64,000 bases of DNA from an uncultured bacterium (GTDB lineage: Bacteria > Zhuqueibacterota > QNDG01 > DSAB01). The translations under genes were made by a program, and so were the position numbers. Below are positions 4,133 through 18,445 of this stretch, one piece after another. The notes under the pieces were generated by a model. It made no database searches, was not told the origin of the DNA, and saw only the letters and a program-made list of their open reading frames with translations. The DNA lies in the NCBI GenBank assembly GCA_964617625.1, contig CAZTZL010000004.1, positions 11,009 through 75,008 on the forward strand. The letters run 5' to 3'. How positions within the stretch are numbered: position 1 is the first letter of the stretch; every line of letters begins with the position of its first letter.

Positions 4133-6228
4133 TATTTCTCTGCTTCCTTTTCCTTCTGGGCCTTGGCTTCCTCGACAATTCGTGCTTCCAATTCTTTGGG
4201 AACCGGTTCGTAGTGCGAAAATTTACGTGAATGAATACCTCTTCCCGAAGTGATCGATCTTAATGTGGTCGCATAACGGTCCAGTTCGGCAAGCGGAACT
4301 TTTGCCTTGATAATCTGAAAATTCCCCTTGGCTTCCATTCCCATGATTTTGCCTCGTTTTCCGGAGAGGTCTCCCATGACATCGCCCATACACTCTTCAG
4401 GGATTTTCACTTCGATATCATAGATCGGTTCGAGAAGTATCGGCTTGGCGTTGAGTACACATTGCTTGAATACTTCTCTTCCGGCAACCTGGAAAGCAAT
4501 GTCTTTGGAATCCACCGGATGCTCTTTTCCGTCATACACAGTCGCTTTCACATCGACAACCTGACAACCGGCTACAGGTCCTTTCTCCAAGACCTGTTTG
4601 ACGCCTTTTTCGACGGAAGCAATATAAACAGATGAAATGTGACCGCCGACCACTGCATTCGCAAATTCAAATCCTCCGCCTCTGGGCATCGGTTCCACAC
4701 GCAGCCATACTTCGGCGAACTGGCCTGCGCCTCCGGTTTGTTTTTTATGACGGTATTTTTCATCCGCCTTGCCCGTAATTGTTTCCCGATAGGGTATTTT
4801 CGGCCTTTCTTCCTCGACTTCCACACCAAATTTATCTTTCAGCCTCTTGATAATGACCTTCAAATGAAGTTCACCCTGGCCTGAAATAATGGTTTGATGA
4901 AGTTCCGGATCGATAAACACGTTAAAGCTTGGATCTTCATCGTGAAGAAAATGCAGGCCGCTTGAAATTTTCTCTTCATCCCCCCGGCTCTTCGGTTCGA
5001 CTGCTACGCTGACCACAGGTTCGGGAAATTGAATTGGGTTCAAAATAATTGGATTTTTCTTGTCACATAATGTATTGCCTGTGCGCGTTTCCTTTAATTT
5101 GACCAATGCGCCTATATCACCTGCTGAAAGATGGCCGATTTCCTTCCTCGTCTTTCCGTTCAATAAATAGATTTGGCCGATCTTCTCTCCTTTTTTATTC
5201 GTGCTGTTGAGTATTTCCATTCCGGAATCGAGTACTCCGGAATAAATACGTATCAGGGAAAGCTCTCCGACGTGGGCTTCCGAAATCGTTTTAAATACAA
5301 GTCCGCACATCGATTCGCTGTCATCGATCTTTCTCTCTATTTCTTTCCCGCCATCGGTCTCTTTTCCTTTAATACTGATAAAATCCTTTGGAGAGGGTCC
5401 ATAACGCGCGATAATATCGAGAAGAGGGTGTGTACCAATATTTTTGCCCGCAGAACCACAGAGAACCGGTATTAAAGTCTTTTGTAAAATACCCTTTCTG
5501 AGACCGATTTGAAACTGCTCTTCGGTAAGCATGCCGGCATCAAAATAGGATTCAAGCAATGCGTCATCACTTTCCGCTGCGGATTCCATAATTTTTTCTC
5601 TCAGCTCTTCGGCCTTTTTCTTATATTCTTCGGGAATTTCGGAAAGTGTGCATTTTCCGCTGAGATTGGTTTCGAAGGTCATTAACTTCATAGATAAAAC
5701 ATCGACAATCCTGTTAAATCCTTCGCCCTGATTGAGCGGGAATTGAAAAGCAACTACTTTATTCCCATAACGTTTTTGCGCTGATAAAAGGGACTTATCA
5801 AAATTGGCATGCTCGTTATCCATCCGATTGATGAAGAACATTCTTGGAATATTATACTCATTAACGAATTCAAGCACCTGTTCTGTTCCAACTTCGATTC
5901 CTTCCACAGCACTGATTACCGTTACAGCAAGATCCGTAACCCGCAAGGCACTTTTGGATTCTCCGATAAAATCGGAATAACCGGGAGTATCGATTATGTT
6001 GATTTTCGAATCCTTCCATTCACCATGCAATGGAGAAATACTGATAGAGAATTTCCGCTCAATTTCATCCGGATGACAATCGGAAACAGTTGTTCCATCA
6101 TCAATTTTCCCGATCCGATTGGTCTCGCCCATCGAAAAAACCATCACTTCAGCCAGAGAAGTTTTTCCAACTCCACCATGGCCTATCAAAGCCAGATTTC
6201 TAATTTGATCTGAGGCATATTGCTTCAC
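4132..6228 (-). CDS. Elongation factor G family translational GTPase (EF-G paralogue, outside the str operon)
   Basis: G-domain motifs GHGGVGKT, DTPGYSDF and NRMD, followed by EF-G domains II to V across 698 aa. Confidence 0.85.
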   Translation of the reverse strand: MKQYASDQIRNLALIGHGGVGKTSLAEVMVFSMGETNRIGKIDDGTTVSDCHPDEIERKFSISISPLHGEWKDSKINIIDTPGYSDFIGESKSALRVTDLAVTVISAVEGIEVGTEQVLEFVNEYNIPRMFFINRMDNEHANFDKSLLSAQKRYGNKVVAFQFPLNQGEGFNRIVDVLSMKLMTFETNLSGKCTLSEIPEEYKKKAEELREKIMESAAESDDALLESYFDAGMLTEEQFQIGLRKGILQKTLIPVLCGSAGKNIGTHPLLDIIARYGPSPKDFISIKGKETDGGKEIERKIDDSESMCGLVFKTISEAHVGELSLIRIYSGVLDSGMEILNSTNKKGEKIGQIYLLNGKTRKEIGHLSAGDIGALVKLKETRTGNTLCDKKNPIILNPIQFPEPVVSVAVEPKSRGDEEKISSGLHFLHDEDPSFNVFIDPELHQTIISGQGELHLKVIIKRLKDKFGVEVEEERPKIPYRETITGKADEKYRHKKQTGGAGQFAEVWLRVEPMPRGGGFEFANAVVGGHISSVYIASVEKGVKQVLEKGPVAGCQVVDVKATVYDGKEHPVDSKDIAFQVAGREVFKQCVLNAKPILLEPIYDIEVKIPEECMGDVMGDLSGKRGKIMGMEAKGNFQIIKAKVPLAELDRYATTLRSITSGRGIHSRKFSHYEPVPKELEARIVEEAKAQKEKEAEK

Positions 6229-7793: not shown

Positions 7794-8692
7794 CGGAGCG
7801 CTCCTTTACATTTCGCCGCCATATCCTCTGCATGATACGAACTTCGCACCCTTGGTCCCGATTGAACCTGCTGAAATCCCATACGAATCGCTACTTCACG
7901 ATATGATTCAAATACTTCAGGATGAATGTATTCCTGAACGGGAGGGCTTGTTCTGCTCGGAGCAAGATATTGACCAATCGTCAGCGCATCACAATCAGCT
8001 TCCCTTAATTTCTCAAAAACACATAATACTTCATCCCAGGTTTCACCCAGACCCACCATCAGTCCTGATTTGGTTATGATTTGCGGTTTAATCGATTTAG
8101 CAATTTTCAACACCGATAGAGAGCGATTAAATTCTGCTTGAGGACGTATGAATGAATAGAGGCTGGGAACCGTTTCCACATTATGATTCAGCACATAGAC
8201 ACCGGATGCGATAACCGTTCTTAAACTCTCTTCGTTTCCCTGAAAATCCGGTACAAGTGTTTCGACGGTAGCTTTTGGAATTTTGCTTTTAATCTGCCGA
8301 ACTGTTTTCGCAAATTGATCGGCACCCCCATCTTTCAGATCATCCCTTGTAACCGAAGTGATAACAATGTGAATCAAATCAAGCACTTTTACAATTTCTC
8401 CGATTCTCCTGGGTTCATCCGTATCAACAGGAAGAGGAACTCCCTGCGAAACATTGCAGAACCTGCAGCCTCGCGTACAAACATCACCTAAAATCATTAA
8501 AGTGGCAGTCTGTTTTTTAAAACATTCCGTTATATTCGGACAGGATGCGGATTGACATACGGTATGAAGGCGATATGTCTGTAATATTTTTTTAAACTGA
8601 AGAATAGATTCATCCTCTCGTTTTTGAGTTCGCAGCCATTCCGGCAAGCGAAGTCTTTGATTTGAGGATCTTTCTGTTTTAAATTCGACCAT
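7790..8692 (-). CDS. lipA: Lipoyl synthase
   Basis: CPNITEC plus the CTRGCRFCNV radical-SAM cysteine motifs, over a LipA-length protein. Confidence 0.9.
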   Translation of the reverse strand: MVEFKTERSSNQRLRLPEWLRTQKREDESILQFKKILQTYRLHTVCQSASCPNITECFKKQTATLMILGDVCTRGCRFCNVSQGVPLPVDTDEPRRIGEIVKVLDLIHIVITSVTRDDLKDGGADQFAKTVRQIKSKIPKATVETLVPDFQGNEESLRTVIASGVYVLNHNVETVPSLYSFIRPQAEFNRSLSVLKIAKSIKPQIITKSGLMVGLGETWDEVLCVFEKLREADCDALTIGQYLAPSRTSPPVQEYIHPEVFESYREVAIRMGFQQVQSGPRVRSSYHAEDMAAKCKGALR

Positions 8693-8859: not shown

Positions 8860-9366
8860 TCAGGGACCGACATGAATCATATCATACTGAAAGTCATCCC
8901 GGTCATAATACATTTCATCTCTTTGGCACAACTCCAATTCTCCCTTTAAAAGAAAGTAATGCCCATGTTCCATGCTCGCCAGATATTGTAAGATTTCCTG
9001 GACACCGCGATCTTCGATCTCTTCAGAAAGGGTGTCATAAAACTCTTCTGACACTTTTTCCAATTCAACTGCCATTTCAAGCAGATCAGGAACCAATGTT
9101 TCCTCAGACAAAGCCAAATCCAGTCTCGGAACAAGGGATTTTTCTGCCGGAGATATTTCTTTCCCGTTAAACATTTTCTTATACATTGCTTCCAGCAATT
9201 TTTGATGTTTCTTTTCTTCATTAATTAAAAATTGAAGTTTGTCCTTTAATACAAAATTTTTCACCTGCTTTTTTAATTTCTTATAAGTCTCTTCTGCTTC
9301 AATCTCTGACTTATATGCAACAGATAAAGCTTTTTCGTTCGTCAAAGAAGAAACATCTACTGACAT
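8860..9366 (-). CDS. Ferritin-like / erythrin-type diiron four-helix-bundle protein (rubrerythrin-family, no rubredoxin domain)
   Basis: Two E...ExxH half-sites (EIEAEE...EEKKHQK, and ELEKVSEE...MEHGH). 168 aa and predicted helical. Confidence 0.55.
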   Translation of the reverse strand: MSVDVSSLTNEKALSVAYKSEIEAEETYKKLKKQVKNFVLKDKLQFLINEEKKHQKLLEAMYKKMFNGKEISPAEKSLVPRLDLALSEETLVPDLLEMAVELEKVSEEFYDTLSEEIEDRGVQEILQYLASMEHGHYFLLKGELELCQRDEMYYDRDDFQYDMIHVGP

Positions 9367-9685
9367 TTTTTTATCCTCCTATCTTAGTTTCTATCATTTT
9401 GTGAATTTCAATTTGTATCACAAAAACACAAAATCCAAATTGCACATAAATGTCGAATCATAAAATTCAAATTAAATGTTGTGATGATAGCTGTCAGTGT
9501 ATACAAATATTCTCTTTTCCTTAAATATCTATTCATAGTTAAGATAACGCATCAAATAGAATATCATCTAAACTACGCCAATGGATAGTTTTGATATTTG
9601 GCATTTGTGCTTTATTTGGATTTTGGTTTTTATTATATGAAATTTCAAAAAAACGTTACCTATTTCAATCTTTACAAAACTGTTA

Positions 9686-10177
9686 TTAGATATTCATTTC
9701 AGATTTTAGTCGGTTGATTCTCCGGATATGGTCGCGTTCCTCTTCGATAATCTGCTCAATAACACCATGGTCTTTCTTTTGAGTTACGTGAATCATTTCA
9801 TGGTAAAACAGGATGGAATCTTTTTCCATACTCATTGCGATTCGGACAGCAACGGAAGGATCGCTTAATTCAGTCTTCATATGTTTTCCTTCATGCCTGG
9901 ATGGAAATATTTTTTGTCCGATGAGTGATCGGAAATAACGTGTGACTTCGCTGTCATCAAAAGGAGTCCCCTCGCCAACCGATTCGATTTCCTGAAGCAT
10001 TTTCCGAAATGTCTTTTCGTGTTTCACTTCTTCATCTGATAAAAATTGAAAGACAGATTTTGTTTTTCCATCTTTGACGGCCTGGACAACCTCGTCATAA
10101 AACGCTTTTCCAGTTTTTTCAATTTCAATCGCCATTTTTAAAATTTCTCCTCCGGCGTATTTTAGTTCCATAAACAT
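9686..10177 (-). CDS. Rubrerythrin-family diiron protein (erythrin domain only)
   Basis: Diiron ligand motifs EIEKTGKAFYDE...EEVKHEK and MEKDSILFYHEM...EEERDH. Confidence 0.6.
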   Translation of the reverse strand: MFMELKYAGGEILKMAIEIEKTGKAFYDEVVQAVKDGKTKSVFQFLSDEEVKHEKTFRKMLQEIESVGEGTPFDDSEVTRYFRSLIGQKIFPSRHEGKHMKTELSDPSVAVRIAMSMEKDSILFYHEMIHVTQKKDHGVIEQIIEEERDHIRRINRLKSEMNI

Positions 10178-10185
10178 CTCCTTTT

Positions 10186-11034
10186 TTATTTCCCGTTTTT
10201 CAGTGAATGCAATAAATTCAAATTATTTTTATAAGATTCCATATCGCCGGGTGTTTCGAGAACCATTGGATGGTTTTCGAACCGGATATCGTTAATCAGC
10301 AGATGAAAAGCTTCAAGACCGAGGAATCCCTTTCCGATATGCTCATGCCGGTCAAGACGGCTGCTCAGGCTGCTTTTCGAATCGTTTAAATGAAATACTT
10401 TCAGTTTCTCCAAACCGATTGTTTTATCAAATTGTTTAAAAGTCGCTTGATAGCTTTTTAAATCCCTGAAATCGTATCCCGATGCAAATACATGGGCCGT
10501 ATCAAAACAGACGCCCAATTGGTCCTTTTTTTCTACTTGCGAAATAATCGTTCCCAATTGTTCAAACTGATAACCGATGTGACTGCCCTGTCCTGATGTG
10601 GTTTCCAATAACAATTGGACCTGTTTACCTGTTACTTTTTCAAGAATCCGGTTCAGACTTTCTGAGATTCTCAGAATACCTTCCCGCTCCCCTGTTCCCT
10701 TGTGTGATCCGGGATGAAATACGAGATAAGGAACGCCTAAAAGCTCTGAGCGATTTATTTCATCTATAAACGCTTCCCTGGACTTTTTCAATCCTTCCCG
10801 ATCCGGGCTGGCCAGATTAATCAGGTAAGAATCGTGAATGATAACCTGCCGTACTGAAGATTGCCTGTATCTTTGCTGAAAAATTCGGCATTTTTCTTTC
10901 GAAATAGGAGCGCTTTTCCACTGTTTTTGATTTCTGCTGAATATCTGAACTGCTTCGCATTGCAGCTCTTCTCCTCTTTGAAAACACGTTTCCAGTCCGC
11001 CGCCAATGGAAATGTGTGCGCCCAGCAGTCCCAT
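10186..11034 (-). CDS. nfo: Deoxyribonuclease IV (endonuclease IV, AP endonuclease)
   Basis: Xylose-isomerase-like TIM barrel with the Nfo motifs GAHISIGGG, HDSYLINLASPD, LVFHPGSH, CFDTAHVFASGYD and HLNDSK. Confidence 0.9.
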   Translation of the reverse strand: MGLLGAHISIGGGLETCFQRGEELQCEAVQIFSRNQKQWKSAPISKEKCRIFQQRYRQSSVRQVIIHDSYLINLASPDREGLKKSREAFIDEINRSELLGVPYLVFHPGSHKGTGEREGILRISESLNRILEKVTGKQVQLLLETTSGQGSHIGYQFEQLGTIISQVEKKDQLGVCFDTAHVFASGYDFRDLKSYQATFKQFDKTIGLEKLKVFHLNDSKSSLSSRLDRHEHIGKGFLGLEAFHLLINDIRFENHPMVLETPGDMESYKNNLNLLHSLKNGK

Positions 11035-11057
11035 TCCAGTCCCGCTTTTGTCAGTAT

Positions 11058-11453
11058 TTAGATGACTTTTATTACTTTTTCAGACTGCCACAGACCATGA
11101 ATATTACATAAAGAAAGCGCCTGCAACGTGCCAGATTTTCCCAATTTTACTGACGCCGCAATTTCATGATGGGTATACACAGATCCTTTATTGGGACCTT
11201 CGACGGACTCTCCATGTGATGTAAACTCAAAATGACCAACCTGAAATGGAAATTTGTCTCCGTCCGCATGGAAATATAATGAAATCCAACGGATGTGATG
11301 TTCTGTCGTATTGGGATGTGCAATTTCTTTTCCAATACCTACTTTGACCTGAAATAATTCTCCATTTTTGACTTGATCCGGGCATTCAATAACAGGAACA
11401 TGTTTTTCTTCTTTCCAATTTGCCTCATGAACAAGTTCTGTAATCTTGGACAT
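11058..11453 (-). CDS. Superoxide reductase (desulfoferrodoxin / neelaredoxin family)
   Basis: EKHVPVIE, HPNTTEHHIRWI, and a C-terminal CNIHGLW iron-site motif. Confidence 0.85.
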   Translation of the reverse strand: MSKITELVHEANWKEEKHVPVIECPDQVKNGELFQVKVGIGKEIAHPNTTEHHIRWISLYFHADGDKFPFQVGHFEFTSHGESVEGPNKGSVYTHHEIAASVKLGKSGTLQALSLCNIHGLWQSEKVIKVI

Positions 11454-11471: not shown

Positions 11472-13004
11472 CTATGCATTTTCATTGGGCAATGTAAAAT
11501 AAAATGTGGACCCCTTGCCCAATTCTGACTCGGTCCATATATTTCCATCGTGAAATTCCACAATTTTTTTGCACATGGCAAGACCTATACCCGTTCCCGG
11601 ATATTGTTCCCAGTTGTGCAGTCGTTTAAAAATCATAAAGATACGGTCTGCATATTTATTGTCAAAACCAATACCATTATCTTTTATTGAAAAAAGCCAT
11701 TCTCCATCTTTTTGTTGTACCTGTATATCGATTACCAAATCTTCTTCGCCTCTGAACTTGATTGCATTATCGATTAAATTACCGAACAAGCGCATTAATT
11801 GCTGTGCGTCTCCAGTGACTTTCGGAATCGTATTACAGCAATGAATCCTGGCTTTACTCGCGGAAATCTCTTCTTTCAAATTGCCGAGAACCACATTTAG
11901 AATATATTGACAGTCCACTTCTTCAAAAATTTTATTATGACTGCCCAGTCTTGAATATACCAGCAGATCATTGAGTAATCGTTTCATCCGTTTTGCAGCG
12001 CTGACAGCATAATGAATAAACTCATTGGCATCTGCATCCAGTTTTCCCTGATATCGTTTTTCCAGCATCTGAACATAACTCGCCACGATGCGAAGCGGTT
12101 CCTGTAAATCATGAAAGGCAACATAGGCAAACTGTTCCTGTTCAGCGTTGGTATGTTTTAGCTGGTTTGCAGTCTCTTCCAGTTCTTTTGCCGTTTTTTC
12201 CAGTCGTTCCTGAGCTAGTTTTTCTTCCGTGATATCTCTTGAAACACCAATAATACCCATGACCTGATTGTTCTGGTCCCTCATAGGGACCTTGGTGGCC
12301 GTAACCCATCGTATTCGGCCGTCCGCCCTTTCTATTTGTTCTAATTTCGATATAAGAGGCTGATCCGTTTTGATCAAATTTTGTTCATCATCAAATGCTT
12401 TCTGGGCCTGTTCTTTCGGGAAATAATCAAAATCGGTTTTCCCAATAGCCTCATCAGGATTGGCAATGCCCAATACTTCTGCCTGGGCCATATTGATGCG
12501 AATGAAACGGGATTGTTTGTCCTTGAAATAGATCGTATCCGGAATGTTTTTCATCAGGGCATTGATGAGATCCCGTTCATGTTGAGATATATCTACAATT
12601 TGCTTCCGTTCAATCGCATACCGGATGGATCGCAAGAGCAGATATCCGCTGACTTCCCCTTTGAACAGGTAATCCTGAGCGCCTTCCCGAACCGCCTGAA
12701 CGGCAACACCCTCATCCCTGAGACCGCTTAATACAATGATCGGAATATGAGGTGCCGCCTGATAGGCCTTATAAAACGTATCCAATCCTGTACTATCGGG
12801 TAAAGAGAGATCGAGTAATAGAATATCAATACTCTTTTCCCGCAGTTTTTCCAAACCTGTGGATAATTGCTCAGCCCAGATCAGTTCAATTCTTTTTACC
12901 GAAGAATCATTGGAGGCCCCTTCTTTCAACAATTCCTCCAATAATCGTGCGTCTCCGGGATTATCTTCGATGAGAAGAATATTCAGAATTTCATCCTGAT
13001 TCAT
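11472..13004 (-). CDS. Receiver-PAS-histidine kinase (N-terminal REC domain fused to a sensor kinase)
   Basis: REC domain (LLIEDNPGDARLL...LLDLSLPD), a PAS domain, an H-box AFHDLQEPLR, and a HATPase_c domain (NLIDNAIKF, DNGIGF, GTGIGLAM). Confidence 0.85.
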   Translation of the reverse strand: MNQDEILNILLIEDNPGDARLLEELLKEGASNDSSVKRIELIWAEQLSTGLEKLREKSIDILLLDLSLPDSTGLDTFYKAYQAAPHIPIIVLSGLRDEGVAVQAVREGAQDYLFKGEVSGYLLLRSIRYAIERKQIVDISQHERDLINALMKNIPDTIYFKDKQSRFIRINMAQAEVLGIANPDEAIGKTDFDYFPKEQAQKAFDDEQNLIKTDQPLISKLEQIERADGRIRWVTATKVPMRDQNNQVMGIIGVSRDITEEKLAQERLEKTAKELEETANQLKHTNAEQEQFAYVAFHDLQEPLRIVASYVQMLEKRYQGKLDADANEFIHYAVSAAKRMKRLLNDLLVYSRLGSHNKIFEEVDCQYILNVVLGNLKEEISASKARIHCCNTIPKVTGDAQQLMRLFGNLIDNAIKFRGEEDLVIDIQVQQKDGEWLFSIKDNGIGFDNKYADRIFMIFKRLHNWEQYPGTGIGLAMCKKIVEFHDGNIWTESELGKGSTFYFTLPNENA

Positions 13005-13045
13005 GACCCGCTCTGACTCCTCTTGATATATGTCTTTCAGAAAAA

Positions 13046-13062
13046 TTATCTTTAAAAGATAA
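13046..13062. promoter_or_regulatory. Perfect 17 bp palindrome TTATCTTT-a-AAAGATAA; candidate Fur/PerR-type operator
   Basis: 8-1-8 inverted repeat with GATAA / TTATC terminal hexamers. It sits about 42 bp upstream of the REC-HK start (13004) and about 135 bp after the bcp stop. Confidence 0.3.
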
Positions 13063-13197
13063 CAAAGACAGTAGGTCCAATAATATTTTTAATTTCAGAC
13101 CGCATTTTCGCACTACAACCACTCAGGTTTCAAAACATGTGATCAAACTTGTGAGTAAAATCGAAAGCCTGATTGTTCTGATATTCGTTTCAACTAT

Positions 13198-13680
13198 TTA
13201 CAGTCGATTGTTTTGTATTGCCTTGATTTTCTCCAGCACGATATCAATATGTCCGGGAACATTAACTTTTCTCCAAACAGACACAATCTTTCCACTCGGA
13301 TCAATCAAAAATGTACTTCTTTCAACACCAAAGTATTCCTTGCCATACATTTTCTTTTTGATCCAAACAGCGTATTTATCCATTACTTCGTGGTTTTCAT
13401 CGCTGAGAAGCTTCACTTTAAGATTGTGCCTATCCCGAAAATTACAATGGCTCTTCGGTGAGTCAGGGCTGACACCGATAACAACTGCTTTCAATTTTAT
13501 AAAAGCATCAATTGATTTCGAAAAATCAATGGCTTCGAGTGTACATCCGCTGGTATTGTCTTTCGGATAGAAATAGAGGACGACCCATTGGCCTTTAAAA
13601 TCTTTTAGGCAAACCCGCTTTTCGTTGGCATCCGGCAGACAAAAGGAGAAAGCGGCTTCTCCTTTTTTTGGCAGAGTCAT
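13198..13680 (-). CDS. bcp: Thiol peroxidase / peroxiredoxin of the Bcp type
   Basis: FYPKDNTSGCTLEA peroxidatic-cysteine motif in a thioredoxin fold. Confidence 0.85.
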   Translation of the reverse strand: MTLPKKGEAAFSFCLPDANEKRVCLKDFKGQWVVLYFYPKDNTSGCTLEAIDFSKSIDAFIKLKAVVIGVSPDSPKSHCNFRDRHNLKVKLLSDENHEVMDKYAVWIKKKMYGKEYFGVERSTFLIDPSGKIVSVWRKVNVPGHIDIVLEKIKAIQNNRL

Positions 13681-13691
13681 AACGACACCTC

Positions 13692-14207
13692 TTATTCTTC
13701 ACCTTTTAATTCGGAATGAAATGCTCTTTTCCCAAGTTCCCTGTCCAGCATAAACAATCCGCCTCCTGATTCGCCGACCATCTTGAGCTTGTCCAAAATT
13801 TCATGATCGTTGGCTTCTTCTTCAACCTGTTCGGTCACAAACCACTGAAGAAATATTTGCGTGGCATGATCGTTTTCTTTTAAAGATAGATCAACAAGAT
13901 CATTGATGCTCTTGGTGACAAATTGTTCATGAGCAAGGGTTTTCTCGAACATATCAACAGGCGATTTGTAATCGGTTTGCGGCTTTTCGATTGCCTGAAG
14001 TTTCACTTGCGCACCCTGTCCATGCAAATATTTGTAAATCCGCATGGCGTGTTCATTCTCTTCCTGATATTGGACCATAAACCAGTTGGCAAATCCACTC
14101 AGACCTGTATGTTCGCTATAGGCAGCCATCGAAAGATAAATATAAGCAGAATACATTTCTTTATTAATTTGAACATTTAAGGCTTCTGCAATTTTTTTAC
14201 TCAGCAT
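13692..14207 (-). CDS. ftnA: Non-haem ferritin
   Basis: Ferritin ferroxidase-centre residues (E..Y, EENEHA, QWFVTEQVEEE) in a 171 aa protein. Confidence 0.85.
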   Translation of the reverse strand: MLSKKIAEALNVQINKEMYSAYIYLSMAAYSEHTGLSGFANWFMVQYQEENEHAMRIYKYLHGQGAQVKLQAIEKPQTDYKSPVDMFEKTLAHEQFVTKSINDLVDLSLKENDHATQIFLQWFVTEQVEEEANDHEILDKLKMVGESGGGLFMLDRELGKRAFHSELKGEE

Positions 14208-14271: not shown

Positions 14272-14430
14272 TTACTGCTTTTCAAATTCATCCTTGCCAG
14301 CACCGCATTCCGGGCATACCCAGTCATCGGGAATTTTTTCAAACGGTGTCCCCGGAGCCACATCGTTATCGGGATCGCCCACAGCAGGATCATACACATA
14401 ACCGCATATTTTACAAACCCACTTTTCCAT
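14272..14430 (-). CDS. Rubredoxin (52 aa); below the ORF-track size cutoff
   Basis: Reverse-complement translation gives [52 protein letters not shown], which is canonical rubredoxin with two CxxCG knuckles. A GGAGGTG ribosome-binding site lies upstream. Confidence 0.8.
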
Positions 14431-14509
14431 AGTACGCACCTCCTTCTGTTAGTTGTAAATTAATTGTATTTTTAAATCAACTGTTTATGAAGAATCGATC
14501 GTCCACCCT

Positions 14510-15727
14510 TTATGGATTTAATTTTTCCGGTGTATATCCGACATTTCTAATTGCTTTTTCAACAGATTCGGCAGACACATTTCCGTTTACACCAACTATT
14601 TTTTTACCAAGATCCACGACCACTTTTTCTACTCCTGGAATAGATTCAACAGCATTTTTTACAGTCATTTGGCAATGCTTACAGGTCATATCTTTTACGG
14701 ACAATTCCAGTTTCATATCCGCCACTTCCTTTCTTGTATGAATCAAACCGCGAAGAATGAGAACCAACAGAACCGCTCCTGAAGTAATCGTCACAACAGG
14801 TGGAATCATTTTCGAATGATGATGAACAAACGCAATATCTCCGCCCAGACGGAACCACAACAGATTAAACAGCCACCCAACAACAAGGGAGACAATTATG
14901 ATTGAGCTTAAATAAAAATAAAATGCTTTTTTCCCAAGTTTGGACCATACAAACGATAATGTGACTGTGTTTGTGGCCGGTCCTGCAATGAGGAAGACCA
15001 GAGCGGCTCCTGGAGCAAATCCTTTCTGGATGAGTGCGGCCGCAATAGGAATCGAACCCGTCGCACAGACATAGAGCGGAATAGCAATAACGAGCATGAT
15101 AATAAAATGAATCCAGGGATTTGAAAAATGGCTCAGAATCAAATCCTCGGGGATAACCGCTGTCAAAATTCCACCGATGACCACACCGAAGAGAAGCCAT
15201 TTACCAATATCACCTGCCAGTTCAATGAAACCATACTGAAAGACTTCCCTGAATCTGAACTTTGTCGATAATTTTTCATGGGTATGCGTATGATGTATAA
15301 CTGTTTTTTCCGGATTGAAAACAGCATCAAGGAATCCGATCAGAAGACCGGATAAAAACGCTGCAATGGGCCTGAAAACAGCAAACAAAGGACCCATTAA
15401 TGAATAGGTAGCAGCAATGGAGTCCACACCCGTGGTCGGTGTTGAAATGAGGAATGCGAGCGTAGCACTTCGGTTTGCTCCTTCCCTTCGTAATGAAGCC
15501 GCAACCGGAATCACGCCGCAGGAGCACAGCGGCAACGGAATGCCAAGAATGGTGGCTTTCAGGATTGATGAAAATCTCCCTCCACCGAGATGATGCGCTA
15601 TAAAATCCGATCCTAAAAAAGCATGCAATATCCCGGCGACAAATAACCCGAGCAATAGATAGGGTGCCACTGCAAGCCAGAGATCGACGGAAGCTTTCAG
15701 GATATTGTACAATAAATCGATTATCAT
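14510..15727 (-). CDS. Metal permease of the PF03773 / ArsP-like family with a C-terminal heavy-metal-associated (HMA) domain; resembles SO_0444-type Cu/Zn transporters
   Basis: Polytopic membrane protein with a conserved PLCSCG motif, a His-rich loop (HHTHTH) and a C-terminal MTCKHCQMTVKNAVESIPGV HMA fold. Confidence 0.7.
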   Translation of the reverse strand: MIIDLLYNILKASVDLWLAVAPYLLLGLFVAGILHAFLGSDFIAHHLGGGRFSSILKATILGIPLPLCSCGVIPVAASLRREGANRSATLAFLISTPTTGVDSIAATYSLMGPLFAVFRPIAAFLSGLLIGFLDAVFNPEKTVIHHTHTHEKLSTKFRFREVFQYGFIELAGDIGKWLLFGVVIGGILTAVIPEDLILSHFSNPWIHFIIMLVIAIPLYVCATGSIPIAAALIQKGFAPGAALVFLIAGPATNTVTLSFVWSKLGKKAFYFYLSSIIIVSLVVGWLFNLLWFRLGGDIAFVHHHSKMIPPVVTITSGAVLLVLILRGLIHTRKEVADMKLELSVKDMTCKHCQMTVKNAVESIPGVEKVVVDLGKKIVGVNGNVSAESVEKAIRNVGYTPEKLNP

Positions 15728-15736
15728 TGAAAACCT

Positions 15737-16240
15737 TTAGAATTTTACAAATTTATCTTTTGAAACACCGCAAACCGGACAATTATCGGGAACATCGCCT
15801 GATACCGTATATCCACAGACAGGACAAATATAAATATCGTTCATTTCGATATCTTTCCCCTGTTTTACGAATTCTCTGGCTTCCGAATACATGGCCGAAT
15901 GAATTTTCTCCGCTTCGATGGCGTAGTGAATCGAACGGATGGCCTCTTTTTCTGTCTGAAGTTTCGCCACGGCATCATAGGCCGGGTACATCTCTTCCAC
16001 CTCAAAATTCTCTCCGTCTATGGCGGATTGAAGGTTTTCGCTTGTATCTCCCAGATCTCCGAGTGCTTTCAAATGATTGGTTGCATGCACCTGTTCGGCA
16101 AATGATATGGCTTTGAACAACCGGGCAATATTGGATTTACCCTCACTTTCCGCTTTTTTGGAAAAAGCAAAATATTTCATATGAGCTTGACTTTCGCCTG
16201 CGAATGCGTCTTTTAAGTTCTTTTCTGTCATTTTCTTCAT
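15737..16240 (-). CDS. rbr: Rubrerythrin (erythrin domain plus C-terminal rubredoxin-like domain)
   Basis: Diiron motifs (ESQAHMKY, EQVHA, EAEKIHSAMY) and a C-terminal CPVCG...CPVCG domain. Confidence 0.9.
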   Translation of the reverse strand: MKKMTEKNLKDAFAGESQAHMKYFAFSKKAESEGKSNIARLFKAISFAEQVHATNHLKALGDLGDTSENLQSAIDGENFEVEEMYPAYDAVAKLQTEKEAIRSIHYAIEAEKIHSAMYSEAREFVKQGKDIEMNDIYICPVCGYTVSGDVPDNCPVCGVSKDKFVKF

Positions 16241-16275: not shown

Positions 16276-17040
16276 TCAAAATTCAAAAAACCGGTGTATT
16301 GTAAACCCAAAATGTAAATCATTCGAATCTGCACCCTGCATTAATATCCGATTGCCGAGTCCATAACTATTACTCAGAAGAAAATGAAACTGATGGCCAT
16401 ACGTCAGCATTTTGAGTCCAAATGCAAAAATATTATTGCGATCTTTTAGATCCGAATTGAGTATAGGATAGTATTCACCTATAAAATGCAGGTTTTTAGT
16501 TAACTGAATATCCCCTCCAAGACCCAATCCAAGATTTTCATTATAACCATCATAACCCAAATTAATTACAGGCGTTAAGCGGTTGAACAAAGGTTCTATA
16601 CGGGATACCATTTGGAAAAACATATGATACTTCCGACAATTGATCGCCTGCTCGAAAGAAAAATACTCGGCTTCGACTTGAAACTGGAAAATCCGAATAG
16701 GAAATGGAATTTTATACTGAATGCCCAGAGAATACGCCTTCAATGGAGAATTAAAAACGTAGGATCCCGAAATACCGATTCCGCTTCCCACGAAAACTCG
16801 CAGCCCAAGTCCCGGATTAGCGCCTCCCTGCATTCCGAAAAATGTTTCGAGTGGCTTTTCAGTTGCTACACCATAAAAACGATGTACAATGGTAAATTGC
16901 ATCTGACGTGCCTCAAGATCCGAAGGCACACTCAGATTCAGCATGGCGTATTTTTCATAAGCAAAAATGAAACCAGGCAAAGCTGTTAATACAATTAAAA
17001 GAAAATTACTTTTTTTCCGTATCATCCCAAACTCCCACAA
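16276..17040 (-). CDS. Outer-membrane beta-barrel protein, DUF5777-like
   Basis: N-terminal signal peptide, alternating amphipathic beta-strand pattern, and a C-terminal aromatic residue (...HRFFEF). The family assignment is from memory. Confidence 0.45.
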   Translation of the reverse strand: MWEFGMIRKKSNFLLIVLTALPGFIFAYEKYAMLNLSVPSDLEARQMQFTIVHRFYGVATEKPLETFFGMQGGANPGLGLRVFVGSGIGISGSYVFNSPLKAYSLGIQYKIPFPIRIFQFQVEAEYFSFEQAINCRKYHMFFQMVSRIEPLFNRLTPVINLGYDGYNENLGLGLGGDIQLTKNLHFIGEYYPILNSDLKDRNNIFAFGLKMLTYGHQFHFLLSNSYGLGNRILMQGADSNDLHFGFTIHRFFEF

Positions 17041-17048
17041 TTAGTGGA

Positions 17049-17471
17049 TTACTCCGACTGAACTGTGATTTTGACTTTTTTCTTTCCATATATACTGCAT
17101 TGCGCAGTCACAGTAATCTCGTCCCCCGTCTTTGCGCCAGGAATTAAATAGGTAGCTTTCTGCTCATCCGGATTCAATTGGATTGCAAACGTCTGCTGAA
17201 TGATCTCATTGCCATTGAGCTGAACGACAATCTTACCAATCCGATGCTTCACCACATCTTTTGTGTTATGTACAGCTACAACAGTCAAAATATGATCCTG
17301 CAGATTAAAATTGAGATCGACTTTACTTGGTGGATGAGCAAAAGCAATTTGGACAAACAAGAATGAAAAAAGCATAACGGATAAAATTGATTTTATTTTC
17401 AACGGAAGGGCCCTCCATTTGTTAGATGCATAAAATATTAACGAAATTAAAATAAAAAGTTTCCAATTCAT
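17049..17471 (-). CDS. Small secreted protein whose predicted mature N-terminus is a histidine (AFA|HPPSK); possible CopC-like metal-binding beta-sandwich
   Basis: Long N-terminal hydrophobic leader with an AXA cleavage site, leaving a mature chain of about 105 aa that starts HPPSKVDLNF. Its start overlaps the Rieske gene stop by 4 nt (ATGA coupling). Confidence 0.4.
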   Translation of the reverse strand: MNWKLFILISLIFYASNKWRALPLKIKSILSVMLFSFLFVQIAFAHPPSKVDLNFNLQDHILTVVAVHNTKDVVKHRIGKIVVQLNGNEIIQQTFAIQLNPDEQKATYLIPGAKTGDEITVTAQCSIYGKKKVKITVQSE

Positions 17472-17932
17472 GAATCGAGATGGAGTATAATCTGATTACT
17501 TTCTAAAGTCGCCAGGATTTCTTCCAGCGGAAAAGGAGCCGGACCGCTTACATTATCACCAGATAGATTGTATCGAGAGCCATGCCCGCAGGGACCGGAA
17601 CAGACCATGATGCCATTCACAGGCAGATCGATTTCACAGCCGGCATGCGTACAGCGGCTCGAAAAAGCAACCGTTTCTGTTTCGGAAATTCGAATAACGA
17701 TAACAGGCAGTGCATATCCCGGCACGTCATCAAATTTTAAAGCACCATTTACCGAATTTAATACTTGATTGTCCGATTGATTCAGATCGATAACATAATT
17801 GTTTTCATTTTGATTTGATTGCATGGGACATGTTTTATCTTTACTGCAGGACGATATCAACTGCCCTATCCCGGTTATACCGATGGCCACCGAGCACGAT
17901 TGTTTTAAAAATCTTCTTCTTTCCATAATCAT
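17468..17932 (-). CDS. Tat-exported Rieske [2Fe-2S] lipoprotein
   Basis: Twin-arginine motif RRRFLK, lipobox LISSC, Rieske box I CTHAGC and box II CSGPCGHGS. Confidence 0.75.
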   Translation of the reverse strand: MIMERRRFLKQSCSVAIGITGIGQLISSCSKDKTCPMQSNQNENNYVIDLNQSDNQVLNSVNGALKFDDVPGYALPVIVIRISETETVAFSSRCTHAGCEIDLPVNGIMVCSGPCGHGSRYNLSGDNVSGPAPFPLEEILATLESNQIILHLDS

Positions 17933-17960: not shown

Positions 17961-18365
17961 TTATTTGGAGTGATCGCATTCCGAACAAATGCCCTGAAAT
18001 TCAAGAAAATGATTATGAATGCGATATCCTGTTAATTTCTCGATTTCATCGATCGATACACGCGGTGAAATATGAGGCACATCTTCTACTTTTCCACAGA
18101 CCGTGCAGCGCACATGATAATGATCCCGCAGATCGCCGTCGTAACATCTTAATCCCTTGCCAATGTTCAATTCCTGAATCTTGCCTTCATCCCGTAATAA
18201 ACTCAGATTCCGGTAAACGGTACCGAGACTGATATTGGCCATTTGCTTTCGGGCCATTTCGAAAATACGATCAGCCGTAGGGTGGCAGTGTGTCGACCGA
18301 ATGACACGAAGCACAAGATTACGCTGGCGGCTTGATTTCAATTTTCTCTCTTGTTTGATCGACAT
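17961..18365 (-). CDS. Fur-family transcriptional regulator (PerR-like by genomic context)
   Basis: Fur fold with a winged HTH, metal-site HHH-type residues (DHYHVRCTVCG) and a C-terminal CSEC. It sits at the head of the oxidative-stress cluster. Confidence 0.85.
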   Translation of the reverse strand: MSIKQERKLKSSRQRNLVLRVIRSTHCHPTADRIFEMARKQMANISLGTVYRNLSLLRDEGKIQELNIGKGLRCYDGDLRDHYHVRCTVCGKVEDVPHISPRVSIDEIEKLTGYRIHNHFLEFQGICSECDHSK

Positions 18366-18385
18366 TTATAAGCCATAATAATAAT

Positions 18386-18400
18386 AGGAACTATTCCTAA
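18386..18400. promoter_or_regulatory. Inverted repeat TAGGAA-cta-TTCCTA immediately upstream of the fur-family gene; candidate autoregulatory operator (or a weak terminator for the symporter)
   Basis: Perfect 6-3-6 inverted repeat, 21 to 35 bp upstream of the start at 18365, inside an 80 bp AT-rich intergenic region. Confidence 0.3.
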
Positions 18401-18445
18401 TATAAATGATTTATTGTGAATGTCAAGTGTTTTCCATTTAGCCGG

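Follow-up and report, generated by a model that had tools for sequence, protein, structure and literature searches.

Superoxide cannot cross membranes, and anaerobes that depend on superoxide reductase (SOR) are usually described as defending the cytoplasm alone. In the SOR motif E-K-H-V-P the Lys residue guides superoxide, and in the ferric form the Glu residue occupies the sixth coordination position. The only exported SORs predicted so far are a handful of proteins, the TAT-SOR class of SORGOdb, which has few members, keeps active site II and carries a twin-arginine signal (PMC3116461). Such a signal implies that folding and metal loading take place in the cytoplasm. In this work we analyzed a gene located at 17049..17402 (minus strand) in a stretch of 64,000 nucleotides (the window) of contig CAZTZL010000004.1, assembled from an uncultured bacterium of the Zhuqueibacterota; coordinates without a locus name refer to the window. 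The best explanation of our results is that its product belongs to a large, unnamed, divergent and exported branch of the SOR (desulfoferrodoxin centre II, PF01880) beta-sandwich superfamily.

The open reading frame (ORF) from which the analysis started, 17049..17471 on the minus strand, was confirmed in the window ORF list together with its reported sequence. It is almost certain that translation begins at the in-frame TTG (17402..17400) and not at the ATG at 17471, because (i) a Shine-Dalgarno sequence GGAGG (17412..17416, minus strand) is located 9 nt 5′ of the TTG; (ii) all eight close homologues are 117–118 amino acids (aa) long and have an MK… start aligned with it; and (iii) in two loci with conserved synteny the gene for a Rieske protein ends shortly before the family gene, 66 nt before it in L001 and 25 nt in L045. 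The ATG overlaps the stop codon of the Rieske gene, and direct reading revealed no Shine-Dalgarno-like motif before it; this, the homologue starts and the syntenic spacing speak against it. The first 23 codons of the longer ORF are probably untranslated. Matches of the ATG-extended ORF to the Pfam families DUF4131 and Glyoxalase_5 were far below the cut-offs and were due to its hydrophobic N-terminus. As defined by the ORF, the homologue lengths and the codon map, the gene ends with a TAA codon (17051..17049) and encodes a precursor of 117 aa, whose numbering is used below.

Residues 1–22 (MKIKSILSVMLFSFLFVQIAFA; 17337..17402, minus strand) have the features of a Sec-type signal peptide, namely a K-rich n-region, a hydrophobic core and an AxA motif (A-F-A) at the end, and they form a separate helix (residues 2–21) in the AlphaFold2 (AF2) model. 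The A-x-A rule and the conservation of the family predict cleavage after Ala22 (AFA|H; precursor MKIKSILSVMLFSFLFVQIAFA|HPPSK), which would release a mature chain of 95 aa and 10.5 kDa starting with His-Pro-Pro. An earlier note on this DNA had proposed a small secreted protein with a mature N-terminal His. The ORF, its signal peptide pattern and the predicted site AFA|HPP agree with both proposals, and the mature length had to be corrected, from about 105 aa. That note had also considered that the true start might be an internal Met; the TTG at 17402 is not a truncating start of this kind, as it retains the full signal peptide.

A word-indexed search returned only eight relatives of this protein. 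An exhaustive HMMER search of 1.84 billion cluster representatives revealed 1,210 of them at E<=1e-3, of which 490 also pass E<=1e-10; almost all have a length of 105–130 aa (about 115 aa typically). No Pfam or NCBIfam model covers the family, as scans of the window protein and 150 members showed, and its members are named hypothetical in their sources, with the sole exception of a JGI label "desulfoferrodoxin (superoxide reductase-like protein)". Text searches found no literature on the family or on DUF5777, the family of a neighbouring gene product, and nothing relevant on exported SOR-like proteins or on SOR together with SoxZ. Matches to the eukaryotic ribosomal protein uS8/S22 (E = 0.002–0.03) were rejected as a chance similarity over one motif (HR-GKIVVQLNG), since they vanish with the 150-sequence profile and neither the fold nor the export signal fits.

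Conservation was counted in the best 156 cluster representatives. His45, His53, Gln75, Cys102 and Gly106 are each present in all 156. Position −1 of the predicted cleavage site (residue 22) is occupied by A, S, G, C or T in every sequence (A in 133), and 145 sequences have His as residue 23, where the remaining 11 have T, D, N or S. Pro comes next at both residue 24 (131/156) and residue 25 (128/156). The N-terminal peptide preceding residue 23 comprises 17–27 residues in 145 of the 156. His at position +1 is found in about 2.6% of secreted bacterial proteins (PMC12537917), so that its frequency of 93% in so large a family is far beyond chance. The mature chain contains a single Cys in 142 of the 156 members, which disfavours a disulfide role for this residue and favours the role of a ligand. 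Two tandem paralogues in the Deltaproteobacteria and Syntrophaceae loci L021 (4486..5314) and L023 (3795..4698) have predicted mature N-termini Asp-Ser-Pro and Thr-Pro-Pro, not His-Pro-Pro, and retain His45, His53 and Cys102.

The pattern of the family alignment, H-P-P … H-x7-H-[YF]-I … C-[NS]-x-x-G, resembles the SOR motifs K-H-V-P, H-P-x4-H-x-I and C-N-x-H-G. The Desulfoferrodoxin model PF01880 was weakly matched by 90 of the 150 members (best E = 5.6e-6), and one of nine members scanned singly, P0129, exceeded its curated cut-off (24.4 against 22.2 bits). In hhalign comparisons the mature family alignment gave a marginal E-value of 0.0054 against a narrow set of class-II SORs, and E = 4e-5 (probability 70%, 84 columns) when three Dfx sequences were included. 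With residues of the reference numbered as in the canonical 131-aa SOR encoded in the window itself (11058..11453), the alignment pairs His45 with His46, His53 with His52, Cys102 with Cys116, Tyr105 with His119 and Gly106 with Gly120.

The AF2 model built from 150 sequences (pLDDT 94.9) has seven strands, and both the model and Foldseek identify it as an Ig-like beta-sandwich of the SOR type. The best PDB match was the Giardia 1Fe-SOR 4d7p (TM 0.59/0.71, the latter on the target; rmsd 3.3 Å); SoxZ chains (ranks 2–3) and the SORs of A. fulgidus and Ignicoccus came next. A shallower model from eight sequences already had 4d7p at the top by TM score. The family thus shares with 1Fe-SOR, neelaredoxin and Dfx centre II (PF01880; 4d7p, 1do6, 4bff) the seven-stranded Ig-like sandwich and a remote profile homology, a His-(x6-8)-His loop after strand 2, a Cys-[NS]-x-x-Gly loop before the last strand and an H-x-P start. 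Considering the fold, the profile matches and the superposition of the ligands together, we regard membership in the SOR superfamily as very likely.

The place of SoxZ among the matches raises the question of whether the protein is a metal-free SoxZ-like adaptor, or a generic Ig-like periplasmic domain, whose conserved His and Cys residues are structural. SoxZ (PF08770; 2oxg, 2ox5) has a related sandwich fold, and its model was weakly matched by 57 of the 150 members (best E = 5.1e-5), although four members scanned singly scored 13.0–17.2 bits, under the gathering score of 25. However, SoxZ has no counterpart of the His-x7-His…Cys-x3-Gly constellation that hhalign superposes on the SOR ligands, and all five invariant residues of the family appear to lie in loops at one pole of the sandwich. 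In addition, neither SoxY nor other sox genes were found in the window cluster or beside about 30 family loci. We therefore consider a metal-free protein of this kind extremely unlikely.

The earlier note had suggested a possible metal site of the CopC/PcoC type (CopC, PF04234). Such an assignment was not upheld by the comparisons which that note itself had suggested, a profile search against CopC, YcnI (DUF1775) and cupredoxin families and a comparison of the predicted structure with the CopC fold. At E<=1 the window protein matched no CopC, YcnI or cupredoxin model of Pfam or NCBIfam, and these families were also absent from those matched by at least two of the 150 members. The family profile, searched against all PDB sequences at E<=10, found no CopC, PcoC or YcnI chain, and SOR 1do6 did appear. 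No CopC, PcoC or YcnI entry was present in the Foldseek top 50 for either model. Membership in the CopC, YcnI or cupredoxin families was rejected on these results, and the profile, PDB and fold matches point instead to the SOR/SoxZ beta-sandwich. CopC completes its Cu(II) site with a D-x-H motif from the C-terminal part of its barrel. No such motif can exist in the mature protein studied here, in which His53 is the last His. The supposed likeness of KVDLNF to the KIQLNFSENL segment reflects merely an amphipathic first strand. A fold belonging to a non-metal-binding family, which the note had named as evidence against its idea, was not found either, since the matched family is one of metalloenzymes. 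The conserved partners of the N-terminal His are two His, one Cys and one Gln, and this predicted set is the SOR ligand pattern, not that of CopC. The conserved mature N-terminal His very probably does belong to a metal site, and in this narrower sense the idea of the note survives.

The elements of the proposed site are distributed along the chain as follows. His23-Pro24-Pro25 (17328..17336), the first mature residues, would provide the first ligand and correspond to H-V-P in the SOR motif E-K-H-V-P. Both His23 and the first His of SOR are followed by x-Pro and precede strand 1, and motif and strand topology suggest that the two residues are equivalent; the hairpin topology would place both at the pole of the His-His loop. 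This loop, His45-x7-His53 (17244..17270), connects strands 2 and 3 and carries the two residues superposed on SOR ligands His46 and His52. Gln75 (17178..17180), in the loop between strands 4 and 5, would share its pole with the His and Cys residues, to judge from the strand order of the model. Finally, Cys102-Ser-Ile-Tyr105-Gly106 (17085..17099; all on the minus strand) is the counterpart of the C-N-x-H-G loop, with Tyr at the position of the last His ligand of SOR. In the model the invariant residues appear to be gathered in loops at one pole, formed by the N-terminus and residues 45–53, 72–79 (including Gln75) and 102–106.

Despite its place in the SOR superfamily, the family lacks three defining features of SOR: the full ligand set, the Glu-Lys pair and the cytoplasmic location. 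The complete [Fe(His)4(Cys)] set (H…H-x5-H…C-x2-H) was not found, since the His three residues after the Cys is Tyr105 in the window protein; in the 156 sequences this residue is Phe (56), Tyr (30), Ser (20), Gly (11), His (6) or others, so that 96% of the members have lost the last His ligand. The six members with His read C-[NS]-[IV]-H-G, as in SOR. The Glu and Lys that precede the first His of SOR are likewise absent, because this His is the processed N-terminus and the residues before it constitute the signal peptide, which is predicted to be cut off. Whereas classical SOR is cytoplasmic, the Sec signal peptide directs the family to the periplasm. Other differences from SOR are the invariant Gln75, which has no SOR counterpart, and the length of the chain, only about 95 residues without the long class-II insertion. 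The site can be described as SOR-like, with a free N-terminus apparently in place of Glu-Lys and with one His fewer; its coordination may be completed by the free amine of His23, by Gln75 or by both.

Two kinds of described proteins combine some of these properties. The family resembles TAT-SOR in the predicted periplasmic export of an SOR domain (PMC3116461) and differs from it in that its signal peptide is of the Sec type and lacks RR, its ligand set is altered and an exposed His is its residue 1. With CopC/PcoC and other histidine-brace proteins (LPMO, YcnI, and the families DUF4198, DUF6702 and Ang of PMC12537917) it shares a small periplasmic beta-sandwich on which signal cleavage exposes a conserved His1. 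Unlike them, it has no detectable sequence relationship or specific fold relationship to this group, its His1 partners (His, His, Cys and Gln) occupy SOR positions, and it lacks the His in the C-terminal half that the CopC D-x-H would require. Nickel superoxide dismutase is a further parallel, as its superoxide centre is built on a processed N-terminal His and the metal is bound by amine, imidazole and Cys thiolate. However, it has an unrelated helical fold, two Cys residues in a nine-residue hook and a cytoplasmic proteolytic maturation that does not involve signal peptidase. A signal-strapping study of proteins with N-terminal His covers four other families (PMC12537917).

The same features could also be read as those of a copper protein on an SOR scaffold, in which the amine and imidazole of His23, together with His45, His53 and Cys102, would bind Cu(I/II) in a manner resembling a histidine brace and serve in buffering, delivery or detoxification of copper. 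In a histidine brace the alpha-amine and N-delta of His1, together with a second His, chelate the metal. Export by Sec means that the metal must be taken up in the periplasm, a compartment in which Cu sites are frequent, and a His/Cys/Gln set recalls the Cu sites of the stellacyanin type. The mature N-terminal His is conserved, and such a residue is a general chelator of Cu and Ni (PMC12537917); the T, D, N or S of the 11 members without it have side chains able to chelate together with the free amine. Nevertheless, no link in sequence or fold was found to CopC, YcnI, PCuAC or cupredoxins, and, to judge from the names of their genomes, most hosts are strict anaerobes, for which few uses of copper are known. 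On balance, and taking into account the gene neighbourhoods described below, we consider a copper protein rather unlikely.

In the window the gene is part of a cluster of nine genes on the minus strand, extending from 18365 to 13198 with gaps of 8–70 nt. The first gene (17961..18365) encodes a Fur-family regulator (PF01475, E = 1.7e-24) for which PerR models gave the best matches; the match to PerR model NF052545 (E = 5.8e-32) was under the curated cut-off of that model. It is followed by the gene of a Rieske [2Fe-2S] lipoprotein (17468..17932; PF00355, 26.4 bits, with PetC-like NCBIfam matches), a candidate electron donor that has a twin-arginine signal (ERRRFLK), a lipobox (LISSC) and the motifs CTHAGC…CSGPCGH, and whose true start is probably MERRRFLK at 17926. 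Its second cluster-binding box, C-S-G-P-C-G-H, has a loop three residues longer than the usual C-P-C-H, as has that of L001, and the orthologue in L045 has a plain C-P-E-H without the disulfide Cys pair. Downstream of the gene under study is a gene for a DUF5777 beta-barrel (16276..17025; PF19089, E = 2.3e-17) with its own signal peptide, which begins at ATG 17025 within a mechanical ORF extending to 17040. The Pfam entry speaks of a membrane-bound beta barrel; the protein would reside in the outer membrane. The remaining genes encode rubrerythrin (15737..16240), an SO_0444-type Cu/Zn efflux permease (ArsP_1) with a CopZ-like HMA domain (14510..15727), rubredoxin (14272..14439), ferritin (13692..14207) and a Bcp peroxiredoxin (13198..13680). 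The Rieske protein with its Tat signal and lipobox upstream, the barrel downstream and the ArsP_1+HMA permease two genes away correspond to the neighbours given in the earlier note. Rubrerythrin, rubredoxin and peroxiredoxin are also the genomic company of SOR; in contrast to SOR, the neighbouring candidate donor is the Rieske lipoprotein and not rubredoxin.

A promoter-like sequence of the near-consensus sigma-70 type (TTGACA-16-TATATT, 11/12) and a palindrome directly following it occupy 18385..18426 (minus strand), 5′ of the Fur-family gene. The palindrome, TAGGAATAGTTCCTA (18385..18399), has a 7-1-7 structure and resembles a Fur/PerR box, so that it is a putative operator; no second copy with up to three mismatches was found in the 64-kb window. 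The same layout of promoter and palindrome, TAGGAATGATTACTA, is present at 4945..4990 of L001. No terminator-like sites were revealed on the minus strand inside the cluster, and from the sequence the nine genes appear to be co-transcribed from a promoter under control of the Fur/PerR type. The partners of the gene under study would thereby be the Tat-exported Rieske lipoprotein, the DUF5777 barrel and a set of genes for the cytoplasmic defence against peroxide and iron.

Just downstream there is a second oxidative-stress block (8860..11453, minus strand), which contains the canonical class-II 1Fe-SOR already mentioned, an AP endonuclease 2/endonuclease IV-like gene (10186..11034) and two rubrerythrin-like ORFs (9686..10177 and 8860..9366). 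It is separated from the Fur-family cluster by a gene for a response-regulator/PAS/histidine-kinase hybrid (11472..13004). With the SOR, endonuclease IV and rubrerythrin-like genes following the cluster, the region reads as the oxidative-stress island of an anaerobe. The window has a GC content of 41%, and no rRNA, tRNA or Rfam family at the gathering score was detected in it.

The gene order of the window is repeated in L001/L002, whose family protein is 80% identical, and in L045, whose family protein is 38% identical. Between L045 and the window the Rieske proteins are 47%, the DUF5777 proteins 38% and the products of the cytoplasmic genes 55–82% identical. It should be mentioned that L001 contains a gene for a ZIP-family metal transporter (10305..11069) between the Bcp and response-regulator kinase genes; it is absent from the window, where the gap between these genes is only 194 nt (13005..13197). 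Likewise, L045 has an extra low-molecular-weight phosphatase/ArsC-like gene (LMWPc; 8006..8428) after the ArsP_1+HMA permease.

The finding of the Rieske gene directly upstream in two lineages whose family proteins have diverged to 38% identity may suggest that the protein serves purely to carry electrons between the Rieske lipoprotein and a further acceptor in the periplasm or outer membrane, with no chemistry on oxygen species; the loss of Glu-Lys and of one His could then mean a closed, non-catalytic site. However, there is no evident acceptor in the operon, and most members have neither a Rieske protein nor a cytochrome as neighbour. This function seems very unlikely to us.

The family was traced in other genomes by means of a degenerate DNA pattern that encodes G-D-x-[ILV]-x-[VI]-x-A-x-C-[NS]-x-x-G-K-K; of the 33 loci retrieved, 30 contain a family member. 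The metagenome-assembled genomes (MAGs) of these loci were labelled WOR-3, Latescibacterota, Elusimicrobia, Omnitrophota, Aminicenantes, Cloacimonadota, Bacteroidales, Saprospiraceae, Syntrophaceae and others, and the MAGs of family members include that of a Methanomicrobiales archaeon. BLAST clustering of the neighbours showed that DUF5777 alone recurs; it adjoins the family gene in five lineages (window/L001, L045, L017, L026 and L028). No universal conserved partner gene was found, and the Rieske gene is confined to the operon type of the window, L001 and L045.

Genes related to oxygen or reactive oxygen species (ROS) were found within about 4 kb of family members in six further lineages. 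They encode OsmC (L004), Dfx and rubrerythrin (L007/L012), cytochrome bd at about 0.8 kb from the family paralogues (L021/L023), a rubrerythrin-like protein and two Bcp (L022), an adjoining flavodiiron protein plus cytochrome bd (L033), and an adjoining AhpC-rubrerythrin fusion plus Dfx (L037). This enrichment is qualitative, as it was counted without a formal background. At 1310..2418 of L004, from a MAG of the Omnitrophota, the end of a gene for a 251-aa stand-alone membrane protein of the NQR2/RnfD/RnfE family shares 4 nt with the family gene, and OsmC comes next; the membrane protein may be a different membrane-bound partner.

These neighbourhoods bear on two of the possible functions. A copper protein would be linked in its role to the Cu/Zn exporter with its HMA domain, which lies two genes away in the window, L001 and L045, but the permease is confined to this operon type, and elsewhere oxygen/ROS genes recur and not copper genes. 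The recurrence of DUF5777 as the most frequent immediate neighbour, in five lineages, would agree with a non-catalytic role in the periplasm together with the barrel, in which Fe(II) or another divalent metal coming in across the outer membrane is captured and is handed over or sequestered under oxidative stress. The ferritin, the Fur-family regulator and the metal permease of the cluster point in the same direction, and exported proteins with N-terminal His tied to transport systems have been described (PMC12537917). At the same time, most family loci have neither the barrel nor any transporter, and an invariant Cys and His site of redox-enzyme descent with an adjoining Rieske protein is more typical of electron transfer. 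We regard such a hand-over function as quite unlikely.

We favour a function in the periplasm as an SOR-like Fe protein that receives electrons from the Rieske lipoprotein and removes superoxide or a related species; we consider this about evenly balanced between right and wrong. Cleavage of the Sec signal peptide after Ala22 would give a 95-aa periplasmic protein starting with His-Pro-Pro, which would hold one redox-active metal ion at one pole of the sandwich, most likely Fe by homology, although Cu is possible. The metal would be bound by His45, His53, Cys102 and the N-terminal His, the last through its imidazole and perhaps also its free amine, with Gln75 alongside; the fourth equatorial His of SOR would be replaced (by Tyr in the window protein), and Glu-Lys by the processed N-terminus. 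The Rieske lipoprotein would feed electrons to this site for the periplasmic reduction of superoxide or a related oxygen species. In this scheme we infer the ligand role of His23, the identity of the metal, the electron path and the substrate.

Several observations weigh against this function or against the SOR relationship on which it is built. The window protein itself has no match to PF01880 at E<=1 (gathering score 22.2 bits), and no SOR signal was obtained in single-sequence comparisons, either with phmmer searches of the PDB by the mature protein and P0129 or with the family alignment against the window SOR; at the sequence level the relationship is detected only by profiles. Foldseek gave weak E-values (1e-3) and interleaved generic Ig/FN3 domains of similar score with the SORs, so that the fold evidence is supportive and not decisive alone. 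At the site, hhalign leaves His23 unpaired with the first His ligand of SOR, and its clustering with the other site residues would follow from topology alone. Because one ligand and the catalytic Glu-Lys are missing, SOR chemistry has perhaps not been retained. With respect to gene context, about two thirds of the approximately 35 family loci examined have no oxidative-stress neighbour, the Rieske partner occurs in two lineages only and has no assigned upstream reductant, and the Cu/Zn efflux permease in the cluster keeps copper a candidate.

Tentatively, it can be hypothesized that the family represents a hitherto overlooked class of SOR relatives that leave the cytoplasm through Sec and receive their metal in the periplasm. 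There the His/His/Cys framework, the N-terminal-His chelate (amine and imidazole) and the invariant Gln would form a new type of mononuclear centre. In the operon type of the window this centre would be connected with the Rieske lipoprotein and the outer-membrane barrel and would give strict anaerobes an extracytoplasmic means of reducing superoxide or other oxygen species; we consider this broader view possible, though somewhat doubtful. If the metal is bound as proposed, the SOR site would gain a new variant of its coordination, and N-terminal-His chemistry a new scaffold. If the protein is instead a copper or metal-trafficking protein, it would still define a new family of N-terminal-His metalloproteins with an unexpected fold. 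With the metal bound as proposed, the Rieske protein, the SOR-like protein and the outer-membrane barrel would make up a testable periplasmic module of oxygen defence, a widespread dark-matter family of more than 1,200 sequence clusters would receive an annotation, and DUF5777 would gain its first functional lead.

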